Origin: Thermoplasmata archaeon
GTDB lineage: Archaea; Thermoplasmatota; Thermoplasmata; Lutacidiplasmatales; UBA184
Length of the DNA stretch: 44,540 nt
Reading direction: 5' to 3'
Assembly: GCA_035945735.1 (NCBI GenBank)
Contig: DASYZY010000123.1
Coordinates: 1 to 44,540, forward strand
The notes under the pieces are model-generated. The model made no database searches and was not told the DNA's origin. It saw only the letters and a program-made list of their open reading frames with translations. Shown here piece after piece: positions 10,251-28,854 of this stretch. Position 1 is the first letter of the stretch; each line of letters begins with the position of its first letter. The position numbers and the translations under genes were made by a program.

Positions 10251-10322
10251 CTGGTGACTCGGATCTGCCTTTGCTTGGATCGGAGCTCGAAGTGGCGAAT
10301 CTACACGCGGGTAGCGCCGATG

Positions 10323-10339
10323 GGAGTGCGGGCACCGGG
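10323..10339. repeat. attL core: 17-bp perfect direct repeat GGAGTGCGGGCACCGGG
   Basis: Identical to 28777-28793, which covers the 3'-terminal 13 nt of tRNA-Gly plus 4 nt. Extended similarity is 30/36 over 10311-10346 versus 28765-28800. Confidence 0.8.
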
Positions 10340-10647: not shown

Positions 10648-10995
10648 GTGATCACGCTCGAGTTCCGGTTCTGGCGAGAGCTCAATCTGCAGCGGAGGAA
10701 ACCCTTCGGCTGCCCCGACTGCCGGCACACCTTCGCGACGACAACCGTGATCCCGCGACACCTGCGGAACGAGCATCCTCGATGGATCCCGTTCTTGAAC
10801 GCTCGGGAGGTGATGAAGAACCCTCGACCAACGCCTCGAGCTGAACTCTGGAAGGATCCCGAGTTCAGAGCCCGGAACGCAGCCGCCGTCCGGGCGACCC
10901 TCGACAAGCGTTGGAAGGATCCCGAGTTCAGAGCCCGGAACGCAGCCGCGCTCGAAGCGTGGTACAACCGCGGCCGAACTGGCGGTGCGAGTTGA
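10648..10995 (+). CDS. C2H2 zinc-finger protein with duplicated WKDPEFRARNAAA motif
   Basis: CPDCRHTFATTTVIPRHLRNEH fits C-x2-C-x12-H-x4-H. The C-terminal half contains two copies of a 13-aa motif encoded by a 38-bp perfect DNA repeat. Confidence 0.65.
   Translation: MITLEFRFWRELNLQRRKPFGCPDCRHTFATTTVIPRHLRNEHPRWIPFLNAREVMKNPRPTPRAELWKDPEFRARNAAAVRATLDKRWKDPEFRARNAAALEAWYNRGRTGGAS
10849..10949 (+). repeat. 38-bp perfect direct repeat (10849-10886 and 10912-10949), period 63 bp, intragenic
   Basis: TGGAAGGATCCCGAGTTCAGAGCCCGGAACGCAGCCGC occurs twice in frame within the C2H2 gene. Confidence 0.9.
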
Positions 10996-11390
10996 TCTCC
11001 TCGCGCCGCCCTATCTACCACTCCTCGACCACATCGAGGGGCGCGGCCGTTCTACCCGGTGCGGCCGTCGCCCCCGCTTTCTCTGAGCGCCTTGCGATCG
11101 AGGCTCGCGCGATCAGCGACGCTCTCAGCCGACTCACGGGCCGGCGCTCCCTCTCCCCCCGGATACATCGAGGCTCGGCGGGCGCCACGTCAGGGCGGGC
11201 AGAAGGGGGGGAGCGGCTCGTTCCGCCGTCTCTGGCTTCTGCTCCGCCGCCCGTCACCGCGACCTGCTCGCTCTGCCACGAGTTCATCTACGTCAACGAT
11301 CGGCTCGGGATCTCCTTCTGTCAGATCCACGGCCTCCACGCCCCGATCGTGTTCCTCCCCGTTGCTCAGCGGCGCCTTTCTGGGGTCTAA
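10992..11390 (+). CDS. hypothetical protein with C-terminal CxxC...CxxH zinc-ribbon-like motif (start uncertain)
   Basis: The TTG at 10992 overlaps the upstream stop (TTGA), matching the coupling style of this element. The C-terminal CSLCHEFIYVNDRLGISFCQIH looks protein-like. GC3 is lower than in neighbouring genes, so coding status is uncertain. Confidence 0.3.
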   Translation: MISSRRPIYHSSTTSRGAAVLPGAAVAPAFSERLAIEARAISDALSRLTGRRSLSPRIHRGSAGATSGRAEGGERLVPPSLASAPPPVTATCSLCHEFIYVNDRLGISFCQIHGLHAPIVFLPVAQRRLSGV

Positions 11391-11433
11391 CCTTGTCAGT
11401 TTTTCTCCAACCTGGTCCCCTTGCCGCTCCCGC

Positions 11434-11458
11434 CGTCCCGTCCCGTCCCGTCCCGTCC
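11434..11458. repeat. pentanucleotide microsatellite (CGTCC)x5
   Basis: Five perfect tandem units, followed by a degenerate unit (CGGGTCC). It lies in the intergenic region downstream of an oligo-T tract (TTTTT, 11400-11404). Confidence 0.9.
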
Positions 11459-11561
11459 CGGGTCCGACCGAACGTACGCACTCCCGCACTCCCCTGCCCT
11501 CCCGTCCCGACCGACGCGCGCGTAGAGCTCCATAGTCGGAGGCGCCCCGTCAGCTCCCGTC

Positions 11562-11721
11562 CAACCCGGGTTGAACAGGGGTCGCCCAACCCGGGTTGCA
11601 ACCCGGGTTCACGTCGAGAGGAGGCCTCGAATGCCCCCCGCTGAGGCGGTTCCAACCCGGGTTGACACCGGGTTGAGGGCGTCGATCGCGCACGGGCCGG
11701 AGAAGGACTGGGACCGGGTTG
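11562..11721. promoter_or_regulatory. array of the 12-bp palindrome CAACCCGGGTTG (3 perfect, one 11/12, two half sites): candidate operator or origin
   Basis: Perfect copies are at 11562-11573, 11587-11598 and 11653-11664. An 11/12 copy is at 11599-11610. Half sites ACCGGGTTG are at 11667-11675 and 11713-11721. The array straddles the start region of the RHH gene. Confidence 0.6.
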
Positions 11722-12182
11722 GGATGAACGTCACCCTCTCTGTCACAGTTCCGGCTGCGATGGTCCGCTGGGCCCGGGCCCACGGCATCGTCCTGAGCCG
11801 GGTCCTCCGCGACAGCGTCGAGCGCCTCCAGGGCGGAGCGAGCCTCGCTCGCACCCGCGAGGAACTCCAGACGGCCCGTGAGCGCGTCCTCCAGCTCGAG
11901 ACGTACGAGGCCCGTCTCCTCGAGGAGGCGAAGGCGGCCGACGACGCAAAGGCCCAGGAGAAAGCGCGGGAGAAGGCGATCCGCGAGCTCACCGCCGAGT
12001 TCGCCGCCGCGGAGGTCAGCCAGGGATCGTTCACGGTCCACCGGCCTTCCCTCGGCAACTCTCCGTCGAACCTCGCGTGGATCGAGCCTCGCGTAGAGAA
12101 GAACCCCGTCCTGCGACCTATGAAGGCGAGGGCGGTCCTCGATCTCGTTCTCACCGCCTGCTCGAAGTCGGAGGCAGCGTGA
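11631..12182 (+). CDS. ribbon-helix-helix (CopG/Arc-like) protein with C-terminal coiled coil
   Basis: VTLSVTVPAAMVRWARAHGIVLSRVLRDSVERL fits a beta-strand followed by two helices (RHH). The ATG at 11631 is preceded by GGAGG with 6-nt spacing. An alternative ATG at 11724 would put the RHH strand at the N-terminus. Confidence 0.65.
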   Translation: MPPAEAVPTRVDTGLRASIAHGPEKDWDRVGMNVTLSVTVPAAMVRWARAHGIVLSRVLRDSVERLQGGASLARTREELQTARERVLQLETYEARLLEEAKAADDAKAQEKAREKAIRELTAEFAAAEVSQGSFTVHRPSLGNSPSNLAWIEPRVEKNPVLRPMKARAVLDLVLTACSKSEAA

Positions 12183-12445
12183 GCGCCGAGGTCGACCTCG
12201 AGTCGCTAACCCGCCGTGAGCTCGAGAACCTCATGCTCACTGAGCACGGGGCGCTGACGCGGATCCTCGAGGCGGTCCGGATGTACTCCGAGCCGGGGTG
12301 GAAGGTTCGGCGGGAGGTCGAGCGGATCGTCAAAGAGGCGGCCGATCGGCGTCCGTTCGCCGTCGCGTTCCAGCGTTCGGCCGACGCCACGCTCTCCGAG
12401 CTCCGGTCGGACTCGAACGAGAGGCGGTGGAGGCAATGGCGGTGA
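12179..12445 (+). CDS. hypothetical protein
   Basis: The GTG at 12179 overlaps the upstream stop (GTGA). The 88-aa product has balanced composition (LESLTRRELENLMLTEHGALTRILEAVRMY). Confidence 0.5.
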   Translation: MSAEVDLESLTRRELENLMLTEHGALTRILEAVRMYSEPGWKVRREVERIVKEAADRRPFAVAFQRSADATLSELRSDSNERRWRQWR

Positions 12446-12909
12446 GGATCCTGGACGCCACCGCCGGCAACCGTGGGGTCTGGTTCGACAAGAACTACCG
12501 GGATGCGACGTTCATCGACATCAGGGCGAAGGGGGAGACCTCCGAGCTGAAGCAGGACAACCTGGTCCTCGACTGTCGGAACACCCGATTCCCAGACGGG
12601 TCGTTCGACTTGGTGATCTTCGACCCCCCGCACATAGCAATCGGACCGAACGCCGAAATGGCGAAGCGGTACGGGTCGCTGCCCAATCCACCGGGACCCG
12701 AACCTATGAGGTCTAACGGCGGATATCCCTCTCTGGCCCGGTGCGACGTCGGCGAGTGCACATGGACGTACCGTGTGCCCGAGCGGCGGCCCCAGAGCCG
12801 AGCGAAGTCCGCGGTCTACATGCACCTCGCCAACCACCACGGTCTAAGAGGCCGGCTAAGGATGATCGCAGCCGATCGAATCTGCATGCGGCTCCAGGTG
12901 CCGGAGTGA
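12436..12909 (+). CDS. putative SAM-dependent (DNA) methyltransferase with DPPH motif and C-terminal C2H2-like finger
   Basis: ILDATAGNRGVW is motif-I-like. DLVIFDPPH is a motif-IV D/N-PP-Y/H type. The tail CDVGEC...MHLANHH is finger-like. No adjacent restriction endonuclease was recognised. Confidence 0.45.
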   Translation: MAVRILDATAGNRGVWFDKNYRDATFIDIRAKGETSELKQDNLVLDCRNTRFPDGSFDLVIFDPPHIAIGPNAEMAKRYGSLPNPPGPEPMRSNGGYPSLARCDVGECTWTYRVPERRPQSRAKSAVYMHLANHHGLRGRLRMIAADRICMRLQVPE

Positions 12910-13616
12910 ACGACCCCGTCGCCCTCTACCTGCGCGTTTCCACCGAGGACCAGGATCTCGGCGCCCAGGAGCGTGAGCTGCGGGAGTACGCCGGCCGCCG
13001 CGGCTGGACTGTCGAAGCGGTCTTTGCCGAGAAGGCGTCGGCGACGGGCAAGATCGAGCGCGAGGCGTGGGAGCAGCTGAGGAAGGAGGCATGCCTTCCG
13101 ACGACCCGCAGGTTTGAGCATGTCCTCGTCTGGGCACTCGACCGCTGGAGCCGGGACCGATCGTTCGTGAAGGCGATCGGCTCGATAGAGGAGCTCGAGC
13201 TCCTAGGCGTGGGTTTCCACAGTTTCAGGGAGCCGACGCTCGACTCCGGCGAGGATGGGAGCTCGAACCTAGCTCGGGACCTCCTCCGCGGGATCCTTCC
13301 AACGATCGCAGCGTTCGAGGCGCAGCGGCGCTCGGACCGCACGCGGGTCGCGATGCAGGAGATCAAGCAGGGTCGCCGGCGGACTCGCTCGGGGCGGCCC
13401 GTGGGCCGGCCGCGGCGCGTGACGCCTGAACTCGAACAGAAGGTGCGCGAGCTGCGCGCCCGGGGGCTGAAGTGGCGCGAGATCGCCGTTCGGCTCCGAA
13501 TCCCCTCCGGAACCGCTCGGAAGGTGCGGCTGCGGGAAACTGCTCGTGCGGAAAAAGGTCAGGGCGGGTTTGCCGCACCTTCGGCGGCATCCTTGGACCT
13601 GCCTACCGTCGGCTAA
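12906..13616 (+). CDS. small serine recombinase (resolvase/invertase family) with C-terminal HTH
   Basis: The GTG at 12906 overlaps the upstream stop. ALYLRVSTEDQDLGAQERELREYA contains the catalytic Ser motif (Y-x-R-V-S-T-x-x-Q). VWALDRWSRD follows, and the C-terminal HTH is VRELRARGLKWREIAVRLRIPSGTARKV. Confidence 0.9.
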   Translation: MNDPVALYLRVSTEDQDLGAQERELREYAGRRGWTVEAVFAEKASATGKIEREAWEQLRKEACLPTTRRFEHVLVWALDRWSRDRSFVKAIGSIEELELLGVGFHSFREPTLDSGEDGSSNLARDLLRGILPTIAAFEAQRRSDRTRVAMQEIKQGRRRTRSGRPVGRPRRVTPELEQKVRELRARGLKWREIAVRLRIPSGTARKVRLRETARAEKGQGGFAAPSAASLDLPTVG

Positions 13617-15424: not shown

Positions 15425-16855
15425 ATGGACCATCGGGCGCCGGGAATCGGGGTGACAGCCCTCGTCCTTCTCGTTCTTACGCTGCCATCGACGGCTGCCT
15501 ACTCACCCCGGGGCGGTCTGGAACCTGACCCGTGGATCTCCGGCAACGTCACCTTCACCGGACACCAGGAGTCGTGGCCGGCGCTCCAGTACGCCCCGGC
15601 AACTGGCCTCAACGCCGAGGTCAACCCGCATACCGGCGACCCATACTTCGTCGACCCGACGGGGATCTCCTCGGCGGTCCTTCAGAACGACACCGTCGGG
15701 TTGACGGAGTGGAACCAGCCGTCGGCGTGGTTCTGGCAGCCGAATCTCGCGCCGGGTTCGGTGACGCGCCTCTTCTCGACGACGTGGCATGGACTCCCAG
15801 CGATCGAGGCGAGCCTGAACACGAGCTCGAAGAGCTCACAGAACGTTGGGATCGAGTACGACATCCCGTACTCCGCGCTCCCTTCGGCGAACCCGTCGAA
15901 GGACTATCTCTCGCTGGGGTTCCGGTTCGACGGGCCGCGCTGTCCCTATCAGAACGCGACTCCCGCGTGCACGGCGCAGCTTCTCGTCACGAACGGGACC
16001 TACGCGGGGTACTGGGCAGCGGCGTTCACCCCGCAATACCAGGCGACCGAGGTCGGGACGCAGTCGTACCCGCTGCCCGGCGGGTCTTCCTGGGTCTCGA
16101 CGTCGCTCGCGTCGATGGACTACCCGTACATCAGCGCGGGGTGGCCGGGAGTCAACTTCTGGAACTCGCTGAACGCCTCGAAGGGGATCCAGGTGGTCAT
16201 CCAGTTCTTCCTCCCCGAGTGGCCGCCGGCCGAGTCGTACACCTACAACGTCACGGTGACGGCGATGGAGCTCAGCCAGTCCCCCGTGGTCCTCGGCTCA
16301 TTGGACTGGGGGAAGACCGTCGTGAGCCCGAGCGTCTCGATGGGCTTCGTCAACCTCTCGGCCCTTTCCCCCAACATCGGCATAGCCGAGTTCGCCGGCC
16401 CTACCTACCGGTTGAGCGTGGCCCAGCCGATGGATCTCCTCTCGGGGGCCAGTGCGACCCCTGTCGCGCTTCCATCCGGGTCGGAGCGGGTGACCTACTT
16501 CGCGCCGTTCGCGCTGGCGTCGGCGCCCCCGCTGCAGTACGGGACCTTCCAACTCGGCGACATCCAGGCGGTCCCGTCGTACTTCTACTCCAGCGCGAGC
16601 CTTGGCTCGATGAACGTCCTGCCGAACTACACTCGCCCCGGGCAGGTCATCCTGGCAACCCCGCTGACGGCGCCGGTGCCCGGGAACTACTCGGCTACCG
16701 TCACGTACAACGCGACGGATTGGGCGGCGATCATCGCGACTCCCGGCGGGCTGCTCCTCAGCTCCGGGTTCCTCTCGTTCCTGGGGACATGGTGGCCGCT
16801 CCTCGCTCTCGCGGCCGGGACGACAGTCGTCGGCGTGGTGGCCCTCCGCCGCTGA
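15425..16855 (+). CDS. secreted N-glycosylation-rich protein with C-terminal membrane anchor (spike-like, paralog A)
   Basis: It has a signal peptide / N-terminal TM (GIGVTALVLLVLTLPSTAA). The large ectodomain has many sequons. The C-terminus is TPGGLLLSSGFLSFLGTWWPLLALAAGTTVVGVVALRR. Shared motifs with 16965..18482 include GN.TF..H..W..L.Y, LQND.V and WNQ. Confidence 0.7.
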   Translation: MDHRAPGIGVTALVLLVLTLPSTAAYSPRGGLEPDPWISGNVTFTGHQESWPALQYAPATGLNAEVNPHTGDPYFVDPTGISSAVLQNDTVGLTEWNQPSAWFWQPNLAPGSVTRLFSTTWHGLPAIEASLNTSSKSSQNVGIEYDIPYSALPSANPSKDYLSLGFRFDGPRCPYQNATPACTAQLLVTNGTYAGYWAAAFTPQYQATEVGTQSYPLPGGSSWVSTSLASMDYPYISAGWPGVNFWNSLNASKGIQVVIQFFLPEWPPAESYTYNVTVTAMELSQSPVVLGSLDWGKTVVSPSVSMGFVNLSALSPNIGIAEFAGPTYRLSVAQPMDLLSGASATPVALPSGSERVTYFAPFALASAPPLQYGTFQLGDIQAVPSYFYSSASLGSMNVLPNYTRPGQVILATPLTAPVPGNYSATVTYNATDWAAIIATPGGLLLSSGFLSFLGTWWPLLALAAGTTVVGVVALRR

Positions 16856-16964
16856 CGCGGACCGAGCGAAACCTATCTGTGGGGGGTACGGCATAGTCCC
16901 GTCCGCTGAGGGCCTGACGCCCGGCCCTCAGCAAGCCGCGCCAGGTCCTCCGCGCAGGACGCGG

Positions 16965-18482
16965 ATGAAGGCGGAATCGGGCGAGGCGCGAAGACTTCGG
17001 CGAGCTGGAGCGAGGGCAGTCTCCCTCGCGGTCGCGGTCCTGGTCGTTGGGATCGCCTTCGTCGCGTTCGGATCCCCTCCGGCGCGCGCCTACACGCCGC
17101 AGTCGTACAACGGCGCGGTCATCGAGCCGAATCCTGAGATGGAGGGCAACACCACCTTCTCGACGCATCTTGCGGGCTGGAACCCGCTCGAGTACTCCGC
17201 CTCGAGCGGCCAGGGCAACCTGAGCGCCGCCACGGATCCGCGGGTCCCAACCCCCTTCTCGATCAACCCCGGCGGAATCGTCGCTCCGGGCATTCTGCAG
17301 AACGACAAAGTCTCCGGGACCACCCCTTGGAACCAGACGAGCTACCTCGGCAACATGGGCGGGATGTCCGCCGGCGGAACCTCTACGGAGACGGCACCTA
17401 CGGTGAACGGCCAGACGGCCCTCCAGTGGGTCGTGAACACCTCGAACGGCGCGGGCCAGGGCCTCGTGAGCACGACCTCCGCGATCTCCTCGGCGAGCTG
17501 GCCCTCGAGCAACCCGACCTTCGACTACGTCACTGCGATCATGACTGTCTCGGGTGGCTCGTGCGCGACCTGCTCAGCCAGCCTTGAGCTCGGCAACGCC
17601 TCGGTGGCCTACCAGTCGGTCTACGTCTCCTCCACCGGTCAGCCGGTGAACGGAGCTGTTGCAGGAGCTACTGCCTGGAAGCTCGGGGTAGGTAGCTCGG
17701 GGATCGTCAGCTTCTCTCTCGCACAAGAGACGTACTCGGGCATCGGACTCAACTACACCGGCAAGGGCGCCACGGCGAGCCTAACACTGACGATCGCGAT
17801 TTCGCTCGCGAAGCAGGCGTCGACTTCGATTACGGTGCAACTCCGTGGTCTTGCCTTCGGCACCGCGCCGCTGACCCTCGGCAACAGCGTCTGGGGGACG
17901 AACCCGGGGACCTACGCCCGCGCCTCCTACACCGGGAACGCGAACCTGACGGCGCTCAACCCGTCGTTCGCCTACAGCTCGGTCTCGGGCGGCAGTTACA
18001 CGGTCGCGCTCGTCCAGCGCGCCTCGGACCTCCCCTCGGGGAACGTGAGCCTGACCGAGTCCGCGCTCTCGAACGGCTCCGAGCAGGTCTCCTACAATTT
18101 CGCCTTCGGCCTTCCGATCGCGCCTGGGCTCACCTACGGCGCGTTCAAGCTGGTCGACGTCCCGCGGCTCGCGGCCTGGCAGTACATCGCCGTGAACTTC
18201 GGCGGTTCGAGCTACCTCTCAACGTATCAGACGAAGACCAACATCGGCAACTACACGACGGTCATCGCTTCGGTCGCGCCGACCACCGGGCAGAGCTGGG
18301 TCGGAACGATCGTCTACACCGAAGCCCAATGGATCGGGATCAGCTCGACGCCCGGGCTGTTCACGACAGGCTGGTTCGCGTTCAACTTCTGGTGGATCGT
18401 CGGAGGGTTTGCAGGCCTGATGGGCATCGGCGGGACGGTCGCCTTTGCGCAGCGCCGAGGAGCTGCGTCCCGGGTCCGCTGA
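16965..18482 (+). CDS. secreted N-glycosylation-rich protein with C-terminal membrane anchor (spike-like, paralog B)
   Basis: The N-terminal TM is AVSLAVAVLVVGIAFVAFG. The ectodomain is Ser/Thr/Asn-rich. The C-terminus is TPGLFTTGWFAFNFWWIVGGFAGLMGIGGTVAFAQRR. N- and C-terminal regions are collinear with 15425..16855. Confidence 0.7.
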   Translation: MKAESGEARRLRRAGARAVSLAVAVLVVGIAFVAFGSPPARAYTPQSYNGAVIEPNPEMEGNTTFSTHLAGWNPLEYSASSGQGNLSAATDPRVPTPFSINPGGIVAPGILQNDKVSGTTPWNQTSYLGNMGGMSAGGTSTETAPTVNGQTALQWVVNTSNGAGQGLVSTTSAISSASWPSSNPTFDYVTAIMTVSGGSCATCSASLELGNASVAYQSVYVSSTGQPVNGAVAGATAWKLGVGSSGIVSFSLAQETYSGIGLNYTGKGATASLTLTIAISLAKQASTSITVQLRGLAFGTAPLTLGNSVWGTNPGTYARASYTGNANLTALNPSFAYSSVSGGSYTVALVQRASDLPSGNVSLTESALSNGSEQVSYNFAFGLPIAPGLTYGAFKLVDVPRLAAWQYIAVNFGGSSYLSTYQTKTNIGNYTTVIASVAPTTGQSWVGTIVYTEAQWIGISSTPGLFTTGWFAFNFWWIVGGFAGLMGIGGTVAFAQRRGAASRVR

Positions 18483-18504
18483 GGGGGACGAGGGGGGTAG
18501 AAAC

Positions 18505-18999
18505 ATGGCTCGCACGTTCCACTTCGCGCTCGCCGCGATCGTCCTCGGCCTGACCTCGATCGGCCTCGCCTTCGGTCTCGGCTTCTTCGCCCCGGGCTGG
18601 TTCGCCTCTCCGTCGCAGGCGACGGAGATCATCCTGGTGGTCGGGGTGATCGCCACCTTCATCCTGTTCCTCGCGGCAATCGCCGTCGAAGGGAAGGACG
18701 GCCGGGCCTCGCGCGCAGTCGGCCACCCGATCTTCGGTCTGCCGAGCCGGGGGCTGCGCCGCAACTTCCGAGGCGTAGACGGCTGGAGGGGACACCACGT
18801 CGGGTGGCTGGTGATCTCGCTGTTCTTCCTCGTCCTCGTCTCGGCAGGCGCCTACGCCTGGGCGGTCGTCTACGAGGGCGCGGACCTGGTCAGCGCGGGA
18901 GTGATCGCATTCCTGATCTTCCTGCTGACCGCGCTCGTCGTGGCGATCGTCTTCGCCGCGATGAAGACGAAGAAGTGGGTCGCGAGCCACCGCCGCTGA
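18505..18999 (+). CDS. small membrane protein (about 4 TM)
   Basis: The ATG at 18505 is preceded by a purine-rich SD-like GAGGGGGGT. Four hydrophobic helices are present. Confidence 0.65.
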   Translation: MARTFHFALAAIVLGLTSIGLAFGLGFFAPGWFASPSQATEIILVVGVIATFILFLAAIAVEGKDGRASRAVGHPIFGLPSRGLRRNFRGVDGWRGHHVGWLVISLFFLVLVSAGAYAWAVVYEGADLVSAGVIAFLIFLLTALVVAIVFAAMKTKKWVASHRR

Positions 19000-19024
19000 G
19001 CCCGCCGGTGCCGAGGCGAGGACC

Positions 19025-19366
19025 GTGCCCTGGACGCTGAGAGGAGACATCGTCTCCCAGATCACCAACCTCATCTGGGGGTTCTTCTCGTCGATCCTGA
19101 CGGGCATCGAGTCCTTCTTCGGCAACATCTTCTCGTCGATCTCGAACCTCTTCGCGACCATCTTCCAGGCCCCTGCCACCGCGATCAGCACCTCGTGGGC
19201 GTCGCTGACGGCGTGGGTCAACATGTGGGGACCGCTCGCCCCGATCATCACCGTCGGGATCGTGGTCCTCGTCGTCCTCATCACCGTCGGGGGAGCGTGG
19301 CTCGTACTGCGCGAGTCAACCGCCGAGGCGAACAAGGAGATCGACGAGGTCGAGGAAGGCGAGTAG
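19025..19366 (+). CDS. small membrane protein with amphipathic N-terminal region, one C-terminal TM and an acidic tail
   Basis: 113 aa. GPLAPIITVGIVVLVVLITVGGAWLVL is followed by RESTAEANKEIDEVEEGE. The TM region resembles that of the next gene. Confidence 0.6.
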   Translation: MPWTLRGDIVSQITNLIWGFFSSILTGIESFFGNIFSSISNLFATIFQAPATAISTSWASLTAWVNMWGPLAPIITVGIVVLVVLITVGGAWLVLRESTAEANKEIDEVEEGE

Positions 19367-19375
19367 GAGGCCCGC

Positions 19376-20008
19376 TTGTGGAGCAACTGGTCTCGCGCCG
19401 AGAAGATCGTCTTCGTGGTCGTGGTGAGCCTGGCAGCTTGGGAAGGAGCCGGCGCCGCCTACCTCTACGCCACGACCCCGGCGCAAGGCGGCGGCCCGGG
19501 GAACGCCTTCGGGCCAATCGGACCGCACCCGCAGGAGGTCCTCGGCTGCAACTGGCTGGAGCAACTCCTCGGGGAGTGCCCGGGCGGCAACGCGGGACTT
19601 CCGGGCGGAGGAGGTGGCTTCGCCTGCATCGAGAGCCCGTCGCAGTTTGCTTCCTGCGTCAGTCAGGACATCCTGAACTCGATCTCGGCGATCTGGACCA
19701 ATCTCCTGCCCTTCCTCGAGACGTATCTCGCCAACCTGGCGTCAGCAGTCCTCGCTGCGATAGCGGGGGCTATCTCGGCGGTCGAGAATGCAATCGCCGG
19801 CGGAGTCCAGTCCATCGTCGTCGATGTCCTGACGCCCTTCAACTGGCTGTTCAACCTGGCCAACCAGGCGGCCAGCTCCTTCGGCCCGCTTTCCCCGATC
19901 ATCGTGACTCTGATCGTGGTCATCGGGGTCGTGGGCCTCATCGCGTTGCTCGGGCTCGTGGTCCTGCTCCTCTGGGGCGCAGGGAAGACGGCGTACAACG
20001 CCTTCTGA
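19376..20008 (+). CDS. membrane protein (N-terminal TM, Cys-containing Gly-rich loop, C-terminal TM)
   Basis: The TTG start is preceded by GGAGG. The C-terminal GPLSPIIVTLIVVIGVVGLIALLGLVVLLL is similar to the 19025 product. Confidence 0.6.
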   Translation: MWSNWSRAEKIVFVVVVSLAAWEGAGAAYLYATTPAQGGGPGNAFGPIGPHPQEVLGCNWLEQLLGECPGGNAGLPGGGGGFACIESPSQFASCVSQDILNSISAIWTNLLPFLETYLANLASAVLAAIAGAISAVENAIAGGVQSIVVDVLTPFNWLFNLANQAASSFGPLSPIIVTLIVVIGVVGLIALLGLVVLLLWGAGKTAYNAF

Positions 20009-20026
20009 GGGGGTGCCGATAGTCCG

Positions 20027-20434
20027 ATGGAGTTCCGAACGGCCCGCCGGATCAGCCTCATCCTCGGGCTCCTGATCGGCGTCCTCATCCTTGCCGAGAC
20101 CCTCATCAACGCCGTCTCGCTCGCGCCCAGCTTCGGTGAGACAGTCCCCTCCTGGCTCGCCTGGGCCGGCAACATTCCGCTGATCGAGTCGCTGTATGTC
20201 GACTCGCTTGTGTCGATTGTCTTCATCGTCTGGATCGCGTTCCAGTTCGCTGAGCGCGACACTCTCGACCACCCGCCCCGGCGTATGCGCTCGAGCGGGC
20301 GCGGGAGCGCCGCTGGAGGCGCGATCCTCCTCTTCCTGGCGTTCGTCCTCGGCGGGGCCTTCCTCTACGCGGTCTTCGGGCTCAACGTCGGCGACATCGG
20401 CTCGAACTTCCTGCACTTCTTAGGAGGCCTCTGA
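20027..20434 (+). CDS. small membrane protein (3-4 TM)
   Basis: 135 aa with hydrophobic helices throughout, tightly packed against its neighbours. Confidence 0.6.
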   Translation: MEFRTARRISLILGLLIGVLILAETLINAVSLAPSFGETVPSWLAWAGNIPLIESLYVDSLVSIVFIVWIAFQFAERDTLDHPPRRMRSSGRGSAAGGAILLFLAFVLGGAFLYAVFGLNVGDIGSNFLHFLGGL

Positions 20435-20436
20435 TC

Positions 20437-20778
20437 ATGCGGCGCCCTCGGCGACGCCTGTACCGGGGAAGCGGGACTCGGTCCCGCGAACTCCGCGAGT
20501 TCGACCGACGGTACGGCCGCCGGGGCGCCGAGGTTTACGGCAGGACGATCAACAAAGTGTCGCGCGAACGAGCGGCCGAACGGCCTGGGGGTGAACTCCG
20601 AGAATACGTCCGACCTCACCGGGCGACGTCCGACCGCGGGCGCCGCTACCCGGTACGCGGCCACTACGAAGAGATCCACGCGCACCCGCACGGGAAGGGC
20701 GACCACGCAGGCCGCTGTACGCGAGCCTGTCGCCGCGGGACCATGAGTCATGGTCACCGACGGCGCCGCCGACGCTGA
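20437..20778 (+). CDS. highly basic small protein (possible nucleic-acid-binding protein, or N-terminal part of the next gene)
   Basis: The ATG lies 2 nt after the previous stop. The product is Arg/His-rich but has protein-like stretches (YGRTINKVSRERAAE). It ends MSHGHRRRRRR, immediately before an out-of-frame signal-peptide-like segment. Confidence 0.4.
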   Translation: MRRPRRRLYRGSGTRSRELREFDRRYGRRGAEVYGRTINKVSRERAAERPGGELREYVRPHRATSDRGRRYPVRGHYEEIHAHPHGKGDHAGRCTRACRRGTMSHGHRRRRRR

Positions 20779-20810
20779 AGTTCGCCCTCGTCCTCCTGCT
20801 GCTCGCGGCC

Positions 20811-22559
20811 TTGGTCGCCGCGACGGCAAGCGCCACCGCGTCAACCGTCTCCCCGCTCCCGCCCCCATCCTCCAGCGGCCCATGCGCAGCCGGCGGCCTG
20901 TTCGGCGAGGTCTCCCCGGTCGGCCACGCCCTCGTCGGGATCCAGTACGCCGACCCGCAGACGGGCGACTCCTGCATCCTCGAGCAGGGCGCGACCCTCC
21001 CCGGGGACGAATTGATCGTCACGCTGTTCACCCCCGACCCAGTCCCGAGCTCCAACGTCACGTTCGACGTCGAGGAGTTCCGCTGGGGCTCGGAGACGGT
21101 GAGCTCGCCCGGGCCAAACAACACGACGGTCAGCCGGTCCGTCCCGGTCCAGGTCGACGTCGTCTGGTCGAACGCGACGGTCCCGGCGAACCCTGGCGAG
21201 ATCCAGCGGTTCGGGCTCAGCGTGCCCCCGGTCTTCACGACGCCCAATTCGGCAGCGAACCTGAGCGTCAGTGTCCTCGGCCTCTCCCTTCAGTTCAGGA
21301 TCGCGACGCCGGGGACGGGGATCCCGATCCCCGAGACCGTAGGGGGCCTCATCGGCTGGCTGGCCGCCATGACCCCCGTCGGGATAGTCGTCTTCCTCTC
21401 GGGGTTCGCTCCCGGCGAATGGTTCCTCCGTCGGATGCGCTACGTCTCGACGGCAATGTGGGCCGCGGCGTTCGCGCTGCTCGTCACCGTGATCATCCTC
21501 GTGGGAGTGCTCGCGGACTTCGTCGGGTTCCTCTACTGGCTCGGCGACGTCGGCGTAGCCGGCCTCGCGCTTGTCCTCCTGCTCCCGATCTTCCTCTGGG
21601 GGTGCGTCTTCTGGATCTTCGTTCGGAAGAACCGCGTCCCGCTGCGGATCCTCCGCGGGCCGATCGCGAAGGCGACGACCCGCGGGGAGCCAGTGTCGGA
21701 GCTGCTCCCGGTCCGCGTTTACGGCGGGGGGACCACCGGCCAGGAGGAGGAGCTCGTAGAGGGGCTTGGGATCGGAGGCCCCGGCGCGGCCTGGTATCGC
21801 CTGCTCGGGGTACGGGTCAAGTGGAAGCCAACCGAGCTCACCGACCGCCCGACGCTCGTCCGCTACGAGTTTCCGCACGGGAAACTCCCGATCGAGGGCG
21901 AGTACGCCGGCTGGCCCGGCCGCGGCGGCGCGCGCCTCGAGGTGAAGACCGTGAGGCCCTCTACCGTCTGGTTCCCGTGGCGCAAGTCCGTACGGGCGCG
22001 TCTGGATCCACCCGACCCTAACGAGCCGAACGGCCACGGACCGGCACCCCAGGCTAAGCGCCTCGAGAAGACCCTCCAAGAGGACGACTGGGCCCACCGC
22101 GGGTTCTTCCTCGGCCTCCGACATGGCGAGGCCCGGGTCGCCGCCCTCGGCTCTCCCGACTTCGTCGGGCCGGACATGTACATCCGCGGGGTCTCGAGCG
22201 CCGCCGAGTTCGGCCGCGAGGCCCAGCGCTGCCGCACTGCCCTGGTCGTTCAGAGCGCGCGCCTCGACCACGAGAGTTGGCTGAAGGCCGAGGAGATCCA
22301 GGCGGTCCACGACCGGATGGAACAGTTCGGGGGAGCCCCCGAGGTCCTCGAGGGCGTCCGTGAGCTCTCGACCCGATCGCTCGACCCGATGTTCGACCCC
22401 GGCGAGCTGATGGACCGACTCGAGCGCCGCGGCGTTCGGCGCGTCGACTACCGACCCCCGGGGACCTCGAAGTACTCCTACTCCTCGGAGACGAAGGCCG
22501 AGGTCGACGCGGATGCGACCAACCCGACCCCGCCCGAGTCGCGAGGGAAGGGCAAGTGA
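20811..22559 (+). CDS. large membrane protein: glycosylated N-terminal ectodomain, at least 3 TM, ~320-aa cytoplasmic domain (5' end unresolved)
   Basis: Sequons are NVTF, NNTT, NATV and NLSV. TM helices include VGGLIGWLAAMTPVGIVVFLSGF, AAAFALLVTVIILVGVLADFVGFLYWL and GLALVLLLPIFLWGCVFWIFV. The frame stays open upstream to at least 20709 (stop not located) and encodes LKFALVLLLLAALVAATASA without a canonical start. Confidence 0.7.
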   Translation: MVAATASATASTVSPLPPPSSSGPCAAGGLFGEVSPVGHALVGIQYADPQTGDSCILEQGATLPGDELIVTLFTPDPVPSSNVTFDVEEFRWGSETVSSPGPNNTTVSRSVPVQVDVVWSNATVPANPGEIQRFGLSVPPVFTTPNSAANLSVSVLGLSLQFRIATPGTGIPIPETVGGLIGWLAAMTPVGIVVFLSGFAPGEWFLRRMRYVSTAMWAAAFALLVTVIILVGVLADFVGFLYWLGDVGVAGLALVLLLPIFLWGCVFWIFVRKNRVPLRILRGPIAKATTRGEPVSELLPVRVYGGGTTGQEEELVEGLGIGGPGAAWYRLLGVRVKWKPTELTDRPTLVRYEFPHGKLPIEGEYAGWPGRGGARLEVKTVRPSTVWFPWRKSVRARLDPPDPNEPNGHGPAPQAKRLEKTLQEDDWAHRGFFLGLRHGEARVAALGSPDFVGPDMYIRGVSSAAEFGREAQRCRTALVVQSARLDHESWLKAEEIQAVHDRMEQFGGAPEVLEGVRELSTRSLDPMFDPGELMDRLERRGVRRVDYRPPGTSKYSYSSETKAEVDADATNPTPPESRGKGK

Positions 22560-23071
22560 GCGACGGGGACATCCACCCCGAGATCGAACTCCCCCCGTGG
22601 GAGCGAGAGGACGTCTACAAGGTCCCGGTGGTCCGCGGGGGTCGTCCCGACCTCCCCGGCATCGAGCAGGAGCAGGAGGCGCTCCTCCGCCTGATCGGGA
22701 CCCTCCCGAAGGACCTCGCCTGGTGGCCGGGCCACGGGAACGCGCTCCAGGTCGCCTATGAGGTGCGCGCCCGGCTCCTCCCTCGGATCAACGTGATCAC
22801 CCTCGGCCGCTGGCAGGAAGACGCCTACATCTGGTTCTTCCTCCTCGGCCCGGGCCCGAAGGACTACCGCTGCGCCACGCTCTGCATCCCCCACCCCACC
22901 GACGCCGCGTGGCTCTCCGGGAAGATCCCGCGCGAGCTGCTCTACCGCGGGGAGCGGAACCGGAACCTCCTCTCGAAGCACGTCATGGAGGCGTCCGCCC
23001 GGGCGATGCGCGAGGAGCAGGCCCGCCACTGGGTCCTCGCCCCCGAGCTCTCCAGCGACCGGGACCGATGA
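22556..23071 (+). CDS. hypothetical protein
   Basis: The GTG at 22556 overlaps the upstream stop (GTGA). The 171-aa product has soluble-protein composition and no recognised motifs. Confidence 0.6.
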   Translation: MSDGDIHPEIELPPWEREDVYKVPVVRGGRPDLPGIEQEQEALLRLIGTLPKDLAWWPGHGNALQVAYEVRARLLPRINVITLGRWQEDAYIWFFLLGPGPKDYRCATLCIPHPTDAAWLSGKIPRELLYRGERNRNLLSKHVMEASARAMREEQARHWVLAPELSSDRDR

Positions 23072-27491: not shown

Positions 27492-27691
27492 TCAGCGACG
27501 TCCCTCGTCCAGCCCCCGAGCGCTGGGACCGACCTTCGGTCGAGACCCGGCGCGCATCCGACCCTTGCGGCGTCTGCGGATTCCCGATCGCCGACTCCCA
27601 GGAGGCTCTCAGCGTGCCCCACGTCGGCGGTCCCGACTCCTGGATTCACAAGGTCTGCCCGAAGGTCTCCTGCACGGGGGTCGCACGGTGA
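27488..27691 (+). CDS. small zinc-ribbon-like protein
   Basis: GTGA overlap. The motif is CGVCGFPIADSQ...HKVCPKVSC (CxxC...CxxxxC). Confidence 0.4.
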   Translation: MISDVPRPAPERWDRPSVETRRASDPCGVCGFPIADSQEALSVPHVGGPDSWIHKVCPKVSCTGVAR

Positions 27692-27846
27692 AGGCGCTCC
27701 AGGCTCATTTCTCGACGGCGCACGGCTACTGGCGCTTCAAAATCCTCAAGCAAACACAGCCGGTCGAACGGACCGATAGAAGGGCGCGCTGGCGCAGGAA
27801 GGTGAGGAGGGCAACCGTCCGTTCCGGACCCTCCGATTCCGCGTGA
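27688..27846 (+). CDS. very small basic ORF, hypothetical
   Basis: GTGA overlaps at both ends link it to the upstream gene and the integrase. 52 aa with no motifs. Confidence 0.3.
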   Translation: MKALQAHFSTAHGYWRFKILKQTQPVERTDRRARWRRKVRRATVRSGPSDSA

Positions 27847-28799
27847 CGATCGACTTTGCCCGCTACCGCTCCTGGTGCCTCGCCCAGGGCCACAGCCTAC
27901 GGACCGTCCAGAAGTCGGTCCGCTACCTCGTCCACTTCGCCGAGGACAAGGGGCTGGGGCTCGCGCCCGAGCTGCTCAACGAGGACGCGGTGATCGAGTT
28001 CGTCGCGCGCTGCCGTGAGCGAGGCACCCACCCGAAGACCCTGAACAACTACGTCCGCGAGCTCAACCTCTGGAGCCGGTTCAACCACCTCGGCTGGAAG
28101 CTGTCCTACTTCCGCCGCCACGCCCCGGTCCTGATGGATCTCCTCGGGCCCGACGACGAGGACCGTTTGCGGGCCGTTCGATTTGTCGATCCCGCGGTCA
28201 ACTCGAGGAACCGCGCGATGCTACTCCTGAGCCTCGACCAGGGGCCCCGCCGCGACGAGATGCTCCAGATGAAGCTCTCCGACCTGGTCGACACTCCGGC
28301 GGGCGGGAAGGGCGTCCTAGTGCGCCGCGGGAAGGGTGACCGCCCGCGCCTGCTCTACCTCGCCCCCGAGACGTGGCGCGAGATCTCCAGCTACGTCGAG
28401 ACCTACCGCATCCGATCGGACGCTTCAGCGCTGTTCACCGCGCGACGCGGCCCGGTCTCGTACGGCATGATGGGGAAGCTCGCGAAGGACATCGGCCGCG
28501 CCGCCGGCGTCCCGAACTTCAGTTGGCACCGCGGGCGCCACCGGATGATCGACGCGATGCTCGATCGAGGGGTCTCGCTCCCGGCAATCCAGGAGGTCGC
28601 GGGCCACTCGAAGGCCGAGACGACCGTCGCCTACGCGAGCCGCCGCGCGCTCAGGTCGCTGACCGAGCGCGAGGTACGATACTTCCAAAAGCGCCGTTTT
28701 GAGCCGATCCAGCCACGAGCCCCCGTCGAGCCGGGCGGGGACGAAGTGGCAAATGTATCCGCGAGTAGCTCGGATAGGAGTGCGGGCACCGGGATTTGA
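27843..28799 (+). CDS. int: tyrosine recombinase / integrase (XerC/D-phage integrase family)
   Basis: It has an N-terminal SAM-like core-binding domain. Catalytic-region motifs are GPRRDEML (Arg), HRGRHRMID (H-x-x-R) and GHSKAETTVAYA (His...Tyr). The last 19 nt overlap the tRNA-Gly gene. Confidence 0.9.
   Translation: MTIDFARYRSWCLAQGHSLRTVQKSVRYLVHFAEDKGLGLAPELLNEDAVIEFVARCRERGTHPKTLNNYVRELNLWSRFNHLGWKLSYFRRHAPVLMDLLGPDDEDRLRAVRFVDPAVNSRNRAMLLLSLDQGPRRDEMLQMKLSDLVDTPAGGKGVLVRRGKGDRPRLLYLAPETWREISSYVETYRIRSDASALFTARRGPVSYGMMGKLAKDIGRAAGVPNFSWHRGRHRMIDAMLDRGVSLPAIQEVAGHSKAETTVAYASRRALRSLTEREVRYFQKRRFEPIQPRAPVEPGGDEVANVSASSSDRSAGTGI
28777..28793. repeat. attR core: 17-bp perfect direct repeat GGAGTGCGGGCACCGGG
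   Basis: Identical to 10323-10339. It spans the tRNA-Gly discriminator, the 3' acceptor strand and the 3' T-stem strand, plus 4 nt downstream. Confidence 0.8.
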
Positions 28800-28854
28800 A
28801 CCCGAGTTATAGGCTTGGCAAGCCTATGTGATAACCAGACTACACTATGCCCGC
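28781..28854 (-). tRNA. tRNA-Gly: tRNA-Gly (anticodon GCC), 74 nt, no encoded CCA
   Basis: Manual cloverleaf of the reverse complement. Acceptor: GCGGGCA/UGCCCGC. D arm: GUGU...UCAC with G18G19. Anticodon stem: UAGGC/GCCUA with loop UUGCCAA. T arm: UCGGG-UUCAAAU-CCCGG. Discriminator: A. Confidence 0.92.

Follow-up and report, generated by a model that had tools for sequence, protein, structure and literature searches.

Close to one edge of an integrated element in a Thermoplasmata archaeon, a cluster of short GC-rich palindromes brackets the start codon of a gene whose product is quite likely the protein that recognizes them. The stretch of DNA analyzed (44,540 nucleotides, hereafter the window) is one whole contig, DASYZY010000123.1, of an archaeal metagenome-assembled genome (GCA_035945735.1) of about 70% G+C, for which the assembly comprises 1.41 Mb and is 71% complete. 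The gene encodes a protein of 183 amino acids (aa) that, on the basis of a predicted fold and weak profile matches, is very probably of the ribbon-helix-helix (RHH) type. We read the palindromes as a cluster of cognate operator sites for this adjacent RHH protein, because the sites covary with one another and with a residue of the predicted ribbon, and because one of them (P4) is held inside the coding sequence by rare codons. That this cluster acts as a negative autoregulatory operator of the RHH gene block appears somewhat more probable than improbable. An autoregulated RHH operator had been proposed in an earlier, sequence-only reading of this DNA. The positions of the sites and the covariation of their copies with each other and with the ribbon uphold the cognate-site part of that proposal. 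The autoregulatory part is put forward more cautiously, because no TATA box was found.

The palindromic 12-mer CAACCCGGGTTG is present as three perfect copies and one 11/12 copy (Table 1). These amount to 4 matches in the window where 0.10 are expected, and 0 of 100 shuffled sequences reach that number. Across the assembly the 12-mer is restricted to the array locus, which rules out a dispersed repeat. The 10-mer AACCCGGGTT occurs six times genome-wide, four times in the array and twice as an isolated singleton, and 9 of the 11 window matches to the 8-mer CCGGGTTG fall inside 11562-11721. Unit centers lie at -63/-52, -38/-26, and +28/+39 relative to the start codon, such that neighbors are 11 to 13 bp, or approximately one helical turn, apart in about 40 loci. 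Every palindrome and half-site named in the sequence-only reading is where it had been placed, as are the oligo-T tract (11400-11404) and the pentanucleotide microsatellite ((CCGTC)5.6 at 11433-11460) upstream. To these we add P0, P1', and P4'. Of the two half-sites ACCGGGTTG at 11667 and 11713, the second is left out of the array because it is not conserved in relatives, and it is probably a chance by-product of the codons for W-D-R-V-G. The description of the region as the only sizeable non-coding gap of the element was overstated, given that a provisional gene map includes other gaps of about 350-380 bp at 20435-20810 and 27492-27842.

The start of the RHH gene was set by comparison with relatives, most of which have a stop a few codons upstream of a single ATG equivalent to ATG 11631. 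This ATG, which follows a GGAGG by 6 nt, is therefore the true start, and ATG 11724 is internal; TTG 11571 is likewise ruled out as a start. With the gene beginning at 11631, the palindrome at 11653 lies in codons 8-11.

An AlphaFold2 model built from a 15-sequence alignment begins with a disordered N-terminal arm (residues 1-24, PTRV..AHGPE.xW) and a short strand at about 29-35. These are followed by helices at 42-50 and 55-66, a 58-residue helix (69-126) that would form a coiled coil, and a small C-terminal domain. When the 47-residue core was modeled alone, an extended segment and helices at 17-25 and 30-41 were obtained with a predicted local distance difference test score (pLDDT) of 90-95. 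Residues 32-40 are the predicted strand, in which V34-T35-L36-S37-V38-T39-V40-P41 alternates between core and polar positions, and Thr35, Ser37, and Thr39 are predicted to face the DNA. The turn G53-I-V-L-S56-R57 is conserved, is of the Gly-x-x-x-Ser type, and N-caps helix B. Residues T39, P41, S56, and R57 are invariant in the 15 sequences, and the strand and turn pattern is likewise present in 35 distant members. Accordingly, the hallmarks of an RHH protein are seen both in the model (strand-helix-helix order) and in the sequence (alternating strand and N-capping turn).

Comparisons with known structures and families point in the same direction. Foldseek returned only five matches to the core among 350,542 chains, all of them RHH proteins: the CopG-DNA complex 1ea4 at the top, VapB (5x3t, two chains), and CdbA (6sbx, two chains). 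Their E-values of 4-9 are those expected for so small a query, and the full-length model yielded noise only. In a profile search, the core matched a HicB antitoxin in its C-terminal DNA-binding domain (9svk_B) with an E-value of 0.009. Pfam CcdA matches 10 of 35 diverse members (best E-value 2.5e-5) but not the window protein itself at E<=0.01 (E-value 0.21). The weak profile matches are thus to the antitoxin families CcdA, HicB, and CopG_antitoxin, and the protein reaches no curated RHH family threshold. The combination of RHH domain, coiled coil, and C-terminal domain is a new protein family, without a curated family match. It is a small one, with 40 clusters at E<=1e-3 among 1.84 billion representatives, and no relatives were found in IMG/VR viral contigs.

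The same layout recurs in about 40 related loci, all from Thermoplasmata. Among 180 genomes of the same family, 15 had homologues with this architecture, at 19 loci in total, as against 0 of 342 other genomes sampled from the class, and a further 20 metagenomic or contig loci carry the array architecture. The sequence-only reading had named two findings that would speak against it, a palindrome common throughout the genome and homologous elements lacking the array. The motif is unique to its locus in the assembly, and the array is kept in homologous elements. In each locus, the end of the Zn-ribbon gene or host DNA is followed by an AT-richer box, the TGCCGCTCC box, the microsatellite running into P0, CGTACG, a second repeat tract, CGTCAG(AG), P1 (with P1'), the abutting P2 and P3, CACGTC..GGAGG, the start codon, and P4 (with P4'). 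Unit centers are at -63, -38, -26, +28, and +39 in the clade of the window and at -59, -35, -22, and +22 in the clade of L013 (L numbers denote loci). The P2-P3 pattern AACCCGGGTTNNAACCCGGGTT has 14 occurrences in the 180 genomes, of which 12 are at the gene and 2 are at truncated stumps. At these stumps (L043 on contig C15 of genome G356, and L044 on contig C91 of genome G462), the non-coding array is complete and the RHH gene is cut after 'VPTRVGP', with an open reading frame (ORF) for an IS110-type transposase following in L043. Both represent degraded versions of the module. The motif was not found described in the literature, where all 45 text matches were to cloning primers.

Relatives down to 83% identity differ by 0 indels over 890 nt. 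Divergence within clades is 0-7% at -190..-161 (P0), -70..-61 (P1), -40..-11 (P2, P3, and CACGTC), and +20..+39 (P4); expressed as fractions, it is 0.03-0.06 at the P0 stretch and 0.2-0.39 in the spacers. A hidden coding region upstream of the gene is ruled out, because substitutions there lack triplet periodicity (109/132/117, versus 179/115/419 in the gene).

The sites of any one element vary in concert, and four kinds of unit can be told apart. Most loci use AACCCGGGTT and L013 uses AACTCGAGTT; L012 and L014/L021 use AACCCCGGTT along with its complement, and L068 uses AACCCCGGAT along with its complement. Each element has a single type in all of its copies, P0 and the microsatellite unit included, with a P0 core of CTCGAG in L013, CCCCGG in L012, and CCCGGAT in L068. 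The abutting unit P1' is perfect in L012 yet weakly conserved inside clades.

The copy inside the gene is particularly informative. The P4 codons CCA and GTT each account for 3.1% of the host's Pro and Val codons, respectively, and the chance of the P4 spelling given the peptide PTRV is 2.3e-4 under host codon usage. L013 holds the same peptide through ACT (2.4%) and CGA (8.2%), which match its own unit. In contrast, the peptide itself is altered to PTPV in L012 and L014 and to PTPD in L068, and in L015 and L016 the peptide is absent and P4 is located upstream of the start codon, outside the gene. This pattern of substitutions shows a constraint at P4 on the DNA rather than on the peptide.

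The unit type also tracks the predicted ribbon. We define the central DNA-facing residue as the fourth back from the invariant T-x-P that ends the strand, which is Ser37 in the window protein. Elements with CCCGGG sites have Ser at this position in all main clades, Thr in L015/L016, and Ala in L067. Gly accompanies the CTCGAG sites of L013/P0012, and Gln accompanies the CCCCGG sites of L012, L014, and L068. In a maximum-likelihood tree, both changes of the core fall on branches where the central residue changed. The closest relatives of L013 (P0019, P0020, and P0022) retain Ser together with CCCGGG, and the Gly/Ser difference is the sole DNA-facing one in the strand between L013 and P0019. In L068 the outer base is changed as well (GTT to GAT), along with an outer ribbon residue (to Gln). 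Central bases that follow a central residue between constant AAC..GTT flanks are the geometry that would be predicted for an RHH ribbon lying across the dyad.

A higher order becomes visible in loci with asymmetric units. P1 and P2 are mutually inverted, as are P3 and P4, such that L012 and L014 read < > < >. L068 reads > < < >, and P2 and P3 are there direct rather than inverted. L061 has AACCCGGGTC as P1 and the exact complement of this unit, GACCCGGGTT, as P2. In L059, L066, and L017, P1 (ACCCCGAGTC) and P2 (GACTCGGGTT) are 9/10 complementary to each other, and their sequences differ from those of P3 and P4 in these elements. A counterexample is L008/L019, in which P1:P2 complementarity is 7/10. 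P3:P4 complementarity is 177/180 in total. The P3-P4 midpoint is at +1 in the main clades, and the two sites are 54-55, 44, 42, or 41 bp apart, or about 5 or 4 helical turns. A 58-residue helix is about 87 Å long, and two such arms could span approximately 50 bp. This dyad organization is compatible with a two-fold-symmetric protein bridge, but it is also compatible with a hairpin or cruciform.

Based on these observations, we infer binding, cooperativity, bridging, and repression by the RHH protein as follows. RHH dimers would insert their two-stranded ribbon, with its Thr35/Ser37/Thr39 face, into the major groove at the center of each 10-bp AACCCGGGTT unit, and the pairs P1/P1', P2/P3, and P4/P4', whose members are 11-13 bp apart, might be occupied cooperatively in the manner of Arc, CopG, or MetJ. 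The dyad-related pairs P1-P2 (about -50) and P3-P4 (about +1) may be bridged through the coiled coil and the C-terminal domain, and DNA looping may bring in the distal P0 (-171). With all proximal units occupied, the stretch from -69 to +45 would be covered, which contains the start codon and the -28 position at which the host has its TATA boxes. This could shut off the RHH gene, the 88-aa gene, the methyltransferase gene, and the serine recombinase gene, and possibly the long plus-strand block behind them. Standing at the border of a mobile element, such a circuit would be a switch based on negative autoregulation.

Several observations weigh against this interpretation, and the first of these concern the promoter. 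A TATA matrix derived from the sequences upstream of 18 host tRNA genes was run over 635 predicted host genes and gave a sharp peak of TATA-like boxes at -30..-26 from start codons (79 matches in this 5-nt bin versus 2-7 in far-upstream bins); host mRNAs therefore appear to be mostly leaderless. P3 occupies this host TATA position (about -28). However, the matrix did not locate the promoter of the RHH gene. In the window, the only TATA-like match upstream of the gene is AGTTTTTC at -229, and 15 of 18 loci have no TATA-like box scoring >=7 within 300 nt upstream. GGAGG is conserved 6-11 nt before the start and is uncommon before genes of the host (6% versus a 3% background). Its presence in a mostly leaderless host suggests a long leader or operon transcript, in which case the sites may lie downstream of the start of transcription. 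Two arrangements are conceivable: a cryptic core promoter underlies P2 and P3, or the transcript of the gene has a long leader or comes from an operon. In the second arrangement, the sites would form a roadblock or exert their effect on the RNA. In addition, the roughly 130 nt of conserved upstream sequence (boxes, fixed-length microsatellites, and P0) exceed what a simple operator needs, and the inversion and compensation of P1/P2 and P3/P4 would also suit nucleic-acid pairing. The Foldseek E-values and Pfam matches fall short of significance or of curated cut-offs. Finally, the covariation with the ribbon comprises only two or three independent changes, and other residues changed on the same branches.

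The conserved upstream sequence has a structure of its own. The AGTTTTTC box directly follows the stop (11388-11390) of the upstream Zn-ribbon gene, and relatives have the AT-richer box ATGCATCC in its place; this box could conceivably act as a promoter or a terminator. At the TGCCGCTCC box, most clades have CTGCCGCTCC in the alignment. The microsatellite unit is GTCCC, AACCC, AACTC, TTCCC, or ATCCC depending on the clade, and it is always the left half of the element's own P0. Its length is fixed, and a phase-variable microsatellite is ruled out by the lack of indels over the aligned 890 nt at identities of 83-99.6% between relatives. Downstream of P0, every clade has another short-repeat tract, the unit of which differs from clade to clade; it is, for example, (CTCA)n, (CTAC)n, or (CT)n, and CCGT-rich in the clade of the window. 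The feature is thus kept while its sequence is not (relatives L052, L055, L013, L015, and L016). A G-quadruplex or G-free strand was considered as a conserved feature and rejected as not general, given that G makes up 24% of the window tract and that G-runs are missing from both strands in the L013 clade.

The array is positioned 1.2 kb inside attL of an 18.4-kb element that is integrated in a tRNA gene and bounded by a 17-bp direct repeat (10323-10339 and 28777-28793). Minus-strand positions 28780-28854 encode the tRNA, a tRNA-Gly(GCC), and the gene for a tyrosine integrase occupies 27843-28799. Similarity between the att regions (10288-10326 versus 28742-28779) extends past the 17-bp core and amounts to 83% over 58 nt. 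On the right it falls in the integrase C-terminus, and the left side translates to a matching 18-residue fragment. This extended similarity suggests a remnant of an earlier related element at the tRNA, or else extended att homology. In several relatives, host genes (for undecaprenyl pyrophosphate synthase, MsrA, a Cys/Met pyridoxal phosphate enzyme, and LysO) lie a few hundred bases upstream, and the module is therefore at the edge of mobile DNA.

Downstream, the array heads a plus-strand gene run (11631-12182, 12179-12445, 12427-12909, and 12906-13616) that continues into a membrane/glycoprotein gene block. The 88-aa protein and its counterparts have no match in Pfam, NCBIfam, or PHROGs, toxin families included. 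The methyltransferase-like ORF encodes 160 aa with the motifs ..LDATAGNRG.. and ..DPPH.. and has no Pfam match, and relatives of the L029 type have a full 429-aa N6_N4 methylase in its place (L029:10578-11867). No replicase was recognized anywhere in the element. Two further observations concern other parts of the window. A perfect 38-nt direct repeat with a 63-nt period (10849-10886 and 10912-10949) lies inside the ORF 10648-10995, where it duplicates the peptide WKDPEFRARNAAA; this ORF also has a C2H2-like CPDC..H..H motif. ARAGORN called a 96-nt tRNA-Pro(CGG) at 22647-22742 on the minus strand, inside the coding gene 22556-23071; this call probably reflects a spurious match, a tRNA with an intron, or a pseudo tRNA.

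Table 1. Coordinates of the array sites, conserved boxes, and neighboring genes in the window (centers are relative to the start codon)
Feature	Position	Strand	Remarks
Upstream gene with C-terminal Zn-ribbon-like motif	10911..11390	+	C-terminal part conserved in several relatives, directly before the array
TATA-like box AGTTTTTC, including oligo-T 11400-11404	11398..11405	+	Score 7.6; sole host-type match upstream
Conserved box TGCCGCTCC	11422..11430	+	About 25 nt downstream of the AT-rich box; from alignment
Pentanucleotide microsatellite (GTCCC)x5	11435..11459	+	Tandem copy of the P0 left half
P0, distal degenerate site GTCCCGGGTC	11455..11464		Center -171; core covaries with P1-P4
Conserved CGTACG box	11473..11478		From alignment
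CGTCAG box	11548..11553	+	In relatives CGTCAGAG, 24-30 nt upstream of P1; second copy after P3
P1, perfect CAACCCGGGTTG	11562..11573		Center -63
P1', degenerate unit AACAGGGGTC abutting P1	11574..11583		7/10
P2, perfect palindrome	11587..11598		Center -38
P3, CAACCCGGGTTC, abutting P2	11599..11610		Center -26
Conserved CACGTCGAGAGGAGG	11610..11624	+	Holds second CGTCAG-type box and Shine-Dalgarno-like GGAGG (11620-11624)
Gene for the 183-aa protein	11631..12182	+	Start set by comparison with relatives
P4, perfect palindrome within codons 8-11 (CCA ACC CGG GTT = PTRV)	11653..11664		Center +28
P4', degenerate abutting unit ACACCGGGTT(G)	11665..11675		Center +39
Half-site ACCGGGTTG	11713..11721	+	Unconserved in relatives; excluded from the array
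88-aa gene	12179..12445	+	4-nt overlap with the RHH gene stop; conserved in many relatives; no family match
DNA-methyltransferase-like gene	12427..12909	+	phrog_954, E 1.8e-21; optional passenger of the module
Small serine recombinase gene	12906..13616	+	Resolvase domain, E 5.7e-23; frequent, not obligatory module partner

Some genomes harbor more than one module. G126 (L013, L015, and L017) has co-resident CTCGAG- and CCCGGG-type elements, and G356 and G462 each have a CCCCGG-type element (L014/L021) together with a CCCGGG-type remnant (L043/L044). This co-residence hints at immunity or incompatibility types, an idea supported by these three genomes because the elements or remnants that they hold are of different site types. 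However, G420 holds two CCCGGG-type elements. On contig C70 of G278 (16407-22891), two modules of different clades (L016/L050 and L006/L039), each with an array, are convergent and 6.4 kb apart. These could be two elements placed tail to tail or one segment flanked by arrays. In an unlikely but more far-reaching scenario, the region might be the combined control and replication (or single-strand hairpin) center of an undescribed family of Thermoplasmata viruses or plasmids. The RHH-coiled-coil protein would then clamp the dyad pairs that bracket the start codon and loop in P0, and changes to the protein-site code would define immunity or incompatibility types that let related elements share a host.

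The possibility that the array is simply a replication origin, which the sequence-only reading had also raised, must likewise be judged unlikely. The RHH-coiled-coil protein would be initiator-like, and the half-site repeats with P0 and the palindromes would correspond to iterons and an inverted-repeat operator, or else P1:P2 and P3:P4 would be extruded as hairpins. Such a role would fit an element without a recognized replicase, and the conserved non-coding region is unusually long, has fixed spacing, combines direct half-site repeats with inverted units, and has mutually inverted or compensated pairs where the units are asymmetric. Moreover, the binding protein is encoded beside its sites, like many Rep proteins. 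However, the region is 70% G+C with no AT-rich unwinding stretch, most relatives have no TATA-like or AT-rich box, and the module is not accompanied by any helicase, primase, or HUH gene. At 5 bp, the half-sites that make up the direct repeats are too short for separate binding sites and unlike iterons, which measure 17-22 bp and are in helical phase, and no initiator is recognizable. RHH proteins are not known to act as initiators, and the P1:P2 complementarity expected of a hairpin is broken in L008/L019.

Regulation at the RNA level is rather improbable. In a long leader, P1:P2 and P3:P4, the latter enclosing the Shine-Dalgarno sequence and the start codon, would pair within the mRNA and gate translation. 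The conserved GGAGG, the lack of a nearby TATA box, and the complementarity that is retained in lineages with asymmetric units (except for P1:P2 of L008/L019) are consistent with this idea, and predicted RNA folds of the region are more stable than those of shuffled sequences (z -2.3 and -4.0). Nevertheless, the ensemble is diffuse, with a minimum-free-energy structure frequency of 3.5%, and the region 11200-11800 has no Rfam match. Pairing requires neither one near-invariant unit across relatives of 30% identity, nor half-sites at P0, nor covariation with the ribbon. Furthermore, the start codon is outside the P3:P4 loop in L015/L016, one-sided changes yield C.A rather than G.U, and P3-P4 spacings near 4 or 5 helical turns (41-44 and 54-55 bp) are relevant to DNA but not to an RNA loop.

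We give a low probability to a toxin-antitoxin operator, which would be a special case of autoregulation in which the RHH protein is the antitoxin and the overlapping 88-aa gene encodes the toxin. The arrangement of an RHH gene and a small gene overlapping it by 4 nt is found in many loci, and the weak profile matches are to antitoxin families. Stability modules often stand beside resolvases on plasmids. Against it, searches of Pfam, NCBIfam, and PHROGs placed the 88-aa protein and its counterparts in no toxin family, L035 has no small gene between the RHH and resolvase genes, and 183 aa with a 58-residue coiled coil are atypical for an antitoxin.

Slightly less probable still is a res-like array, serving as an accessory or crossover site of the serine recombinase whose gene lies 1.3 kb downstream; the RHH protein would then contribute to architecture or directionality. 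A small serine recombinase gene follows the RHH gene in many relatives (directly in L035, L036, and L052), the three unit pairs span 114 bp, a size reminiscent of Tn3/gamma-delta res, and the module is at the edge of mobile DNA, as noted above. But complete arrays exist on contigs without a Resolvase domain (C18 of G098, 35.6 kb; C3 of G266, 33 kb; and C70 of G278, 49.5 kb with two arrays), and G419 has no Resolvase domain in the whole genome. Resolvase dimers bind 25-34-bp sites in which two inverted arms of about 12 bp flank a central crossover dinucleotide. The units here are 10-12-bp palindromes with half-site centers about 5 bp apart, of which only P2 and P3 together reach 24 bp, and their changes in specificity follow the RHH ribbon.

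Partition by an RHH centromere-binding protein of the ParG/ParR/omega type, another suggestion of the sequence-only reading, is the least probable, for although short sites are clustered upstream of an RHH gene as in parC or parH, the module has no ParA/ParM-type ATPase gene beside it in the window or in the relatives examined, and the element integrates by a tyrosine integrase. Restriction avoidance or a methylation target was rejected, because CCCGGG is not avoided genome-wide (1641 observed versus 1739 expected), the methyltransferase gene is optional, and L013, with its CTCGAG units, has none between the RHH and resolvase genes.

Almost nothing is known of gene control in the mobile elements of uncultivated, high-G+C Thermoplasmata, and no gene of this element has a characterized relative. 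The module offers a natural protein-DNA recognition pair in four variants (CCCGGG, CTCGAG, CCCCGG..GTT, and CCCCGG..GAT) that are tied to one or two ribbon residues, and the existence of four natural specificity variants makes possible a direct and cheap test of the RHH recognition code. It also presents a probable regulatory site that is imposed on a coding sequence despite the very rare codons this requires, as well as half-site microsatellites whose length is held fixed rather than variable. In practical terms, the array is a sharp DNA marker in metagenomes for an element family that virus catalogues such as IMG/VR miss.

The closest functional analogs of the proposed operator would be the RHH regulators of archaeal viruses, F55 (SSV1), SvtR, and AvtR, as well as CopG, Arc, and MetJ, plasmid and phage RHH repressors with tandem operators. 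F55 binds repeated short sites at its own promoter and at target promoters; these sites overlap the transcription factor B recognition element (BRE) and the transcription start, and their occupancy is graded by site number and affinity (PMC5569661). Like F55, the protein described here is an RHH protein of an integrating archaeal element, virus- or provirus-encoded, with repeated short sites at its own gene to which it presumably binds. However, F55 is a small protein that acts on AT-rich direct tandem repeats (ATAGATAG) at four promoters, whereas the 183-aa protein has a coiled coil and an extra domain, its GC-rich palindromes are at a single locus with one of them within the coding sequence, and the two have no detectable sequence relationship. 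SvtR (SIRV1) represses its own promoter, both SvtR and AvtR (AFV6) bind imperfect inverted repeats, and they have been proposed to spread or oligomerize towards the core promoter, beginning at a site of high affinity (PMC5569661). The distal P0 and the proximal sites of the present array are comparable in this respect. Even so, SvtR and AvtR sites are AT-rich and longer and include no array of identical units and no half-site microsatellite, and the proteins are of 6.6 and 11.9 kDa.

Arc, Mnt, CopG, MetJ, and ORF56/CopG of the archaeal plasmid pRN1 all read a short palindromic or pseudopalindromic unit with a beta-ribbon and bind cooperatively to neighbors about one turn apart, and the gene for an Arc/CopG-type repressor stands first in the operon that it controls. 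The array resembles these operators in its short palindromic units one helical turn apart and in the regulator-like gene that heads the plus-strand run. It differs in that Arc/CopG-type operators overlap a recognizable promoter, of which none was found here, and in that the corresponding proteins, of 45-105 aa, have neither a distal half-site tandem nor a site in their own coding sequence, both of which are present here. A further parallel is the res site of Tn3/gamma-delta, a cluster of dyad-symmetric subsites of about 114 bp that is located upstream of an operon, often with a small serine recombinase, and that in Tn3 doubles as an operator. Unlike res, the array persists without a recombinase, its unit size and geometry do not fit resolvase dimers, and the next gene encodes an RHH protein. 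Without a recognizable promoter, the array thus differs from known RHH operators in its identical GC-rich units at a single locus, a site within the coding sequence, a fixed-length half-site microsatellite with P0, and dyad pairs arranged around the start codon.

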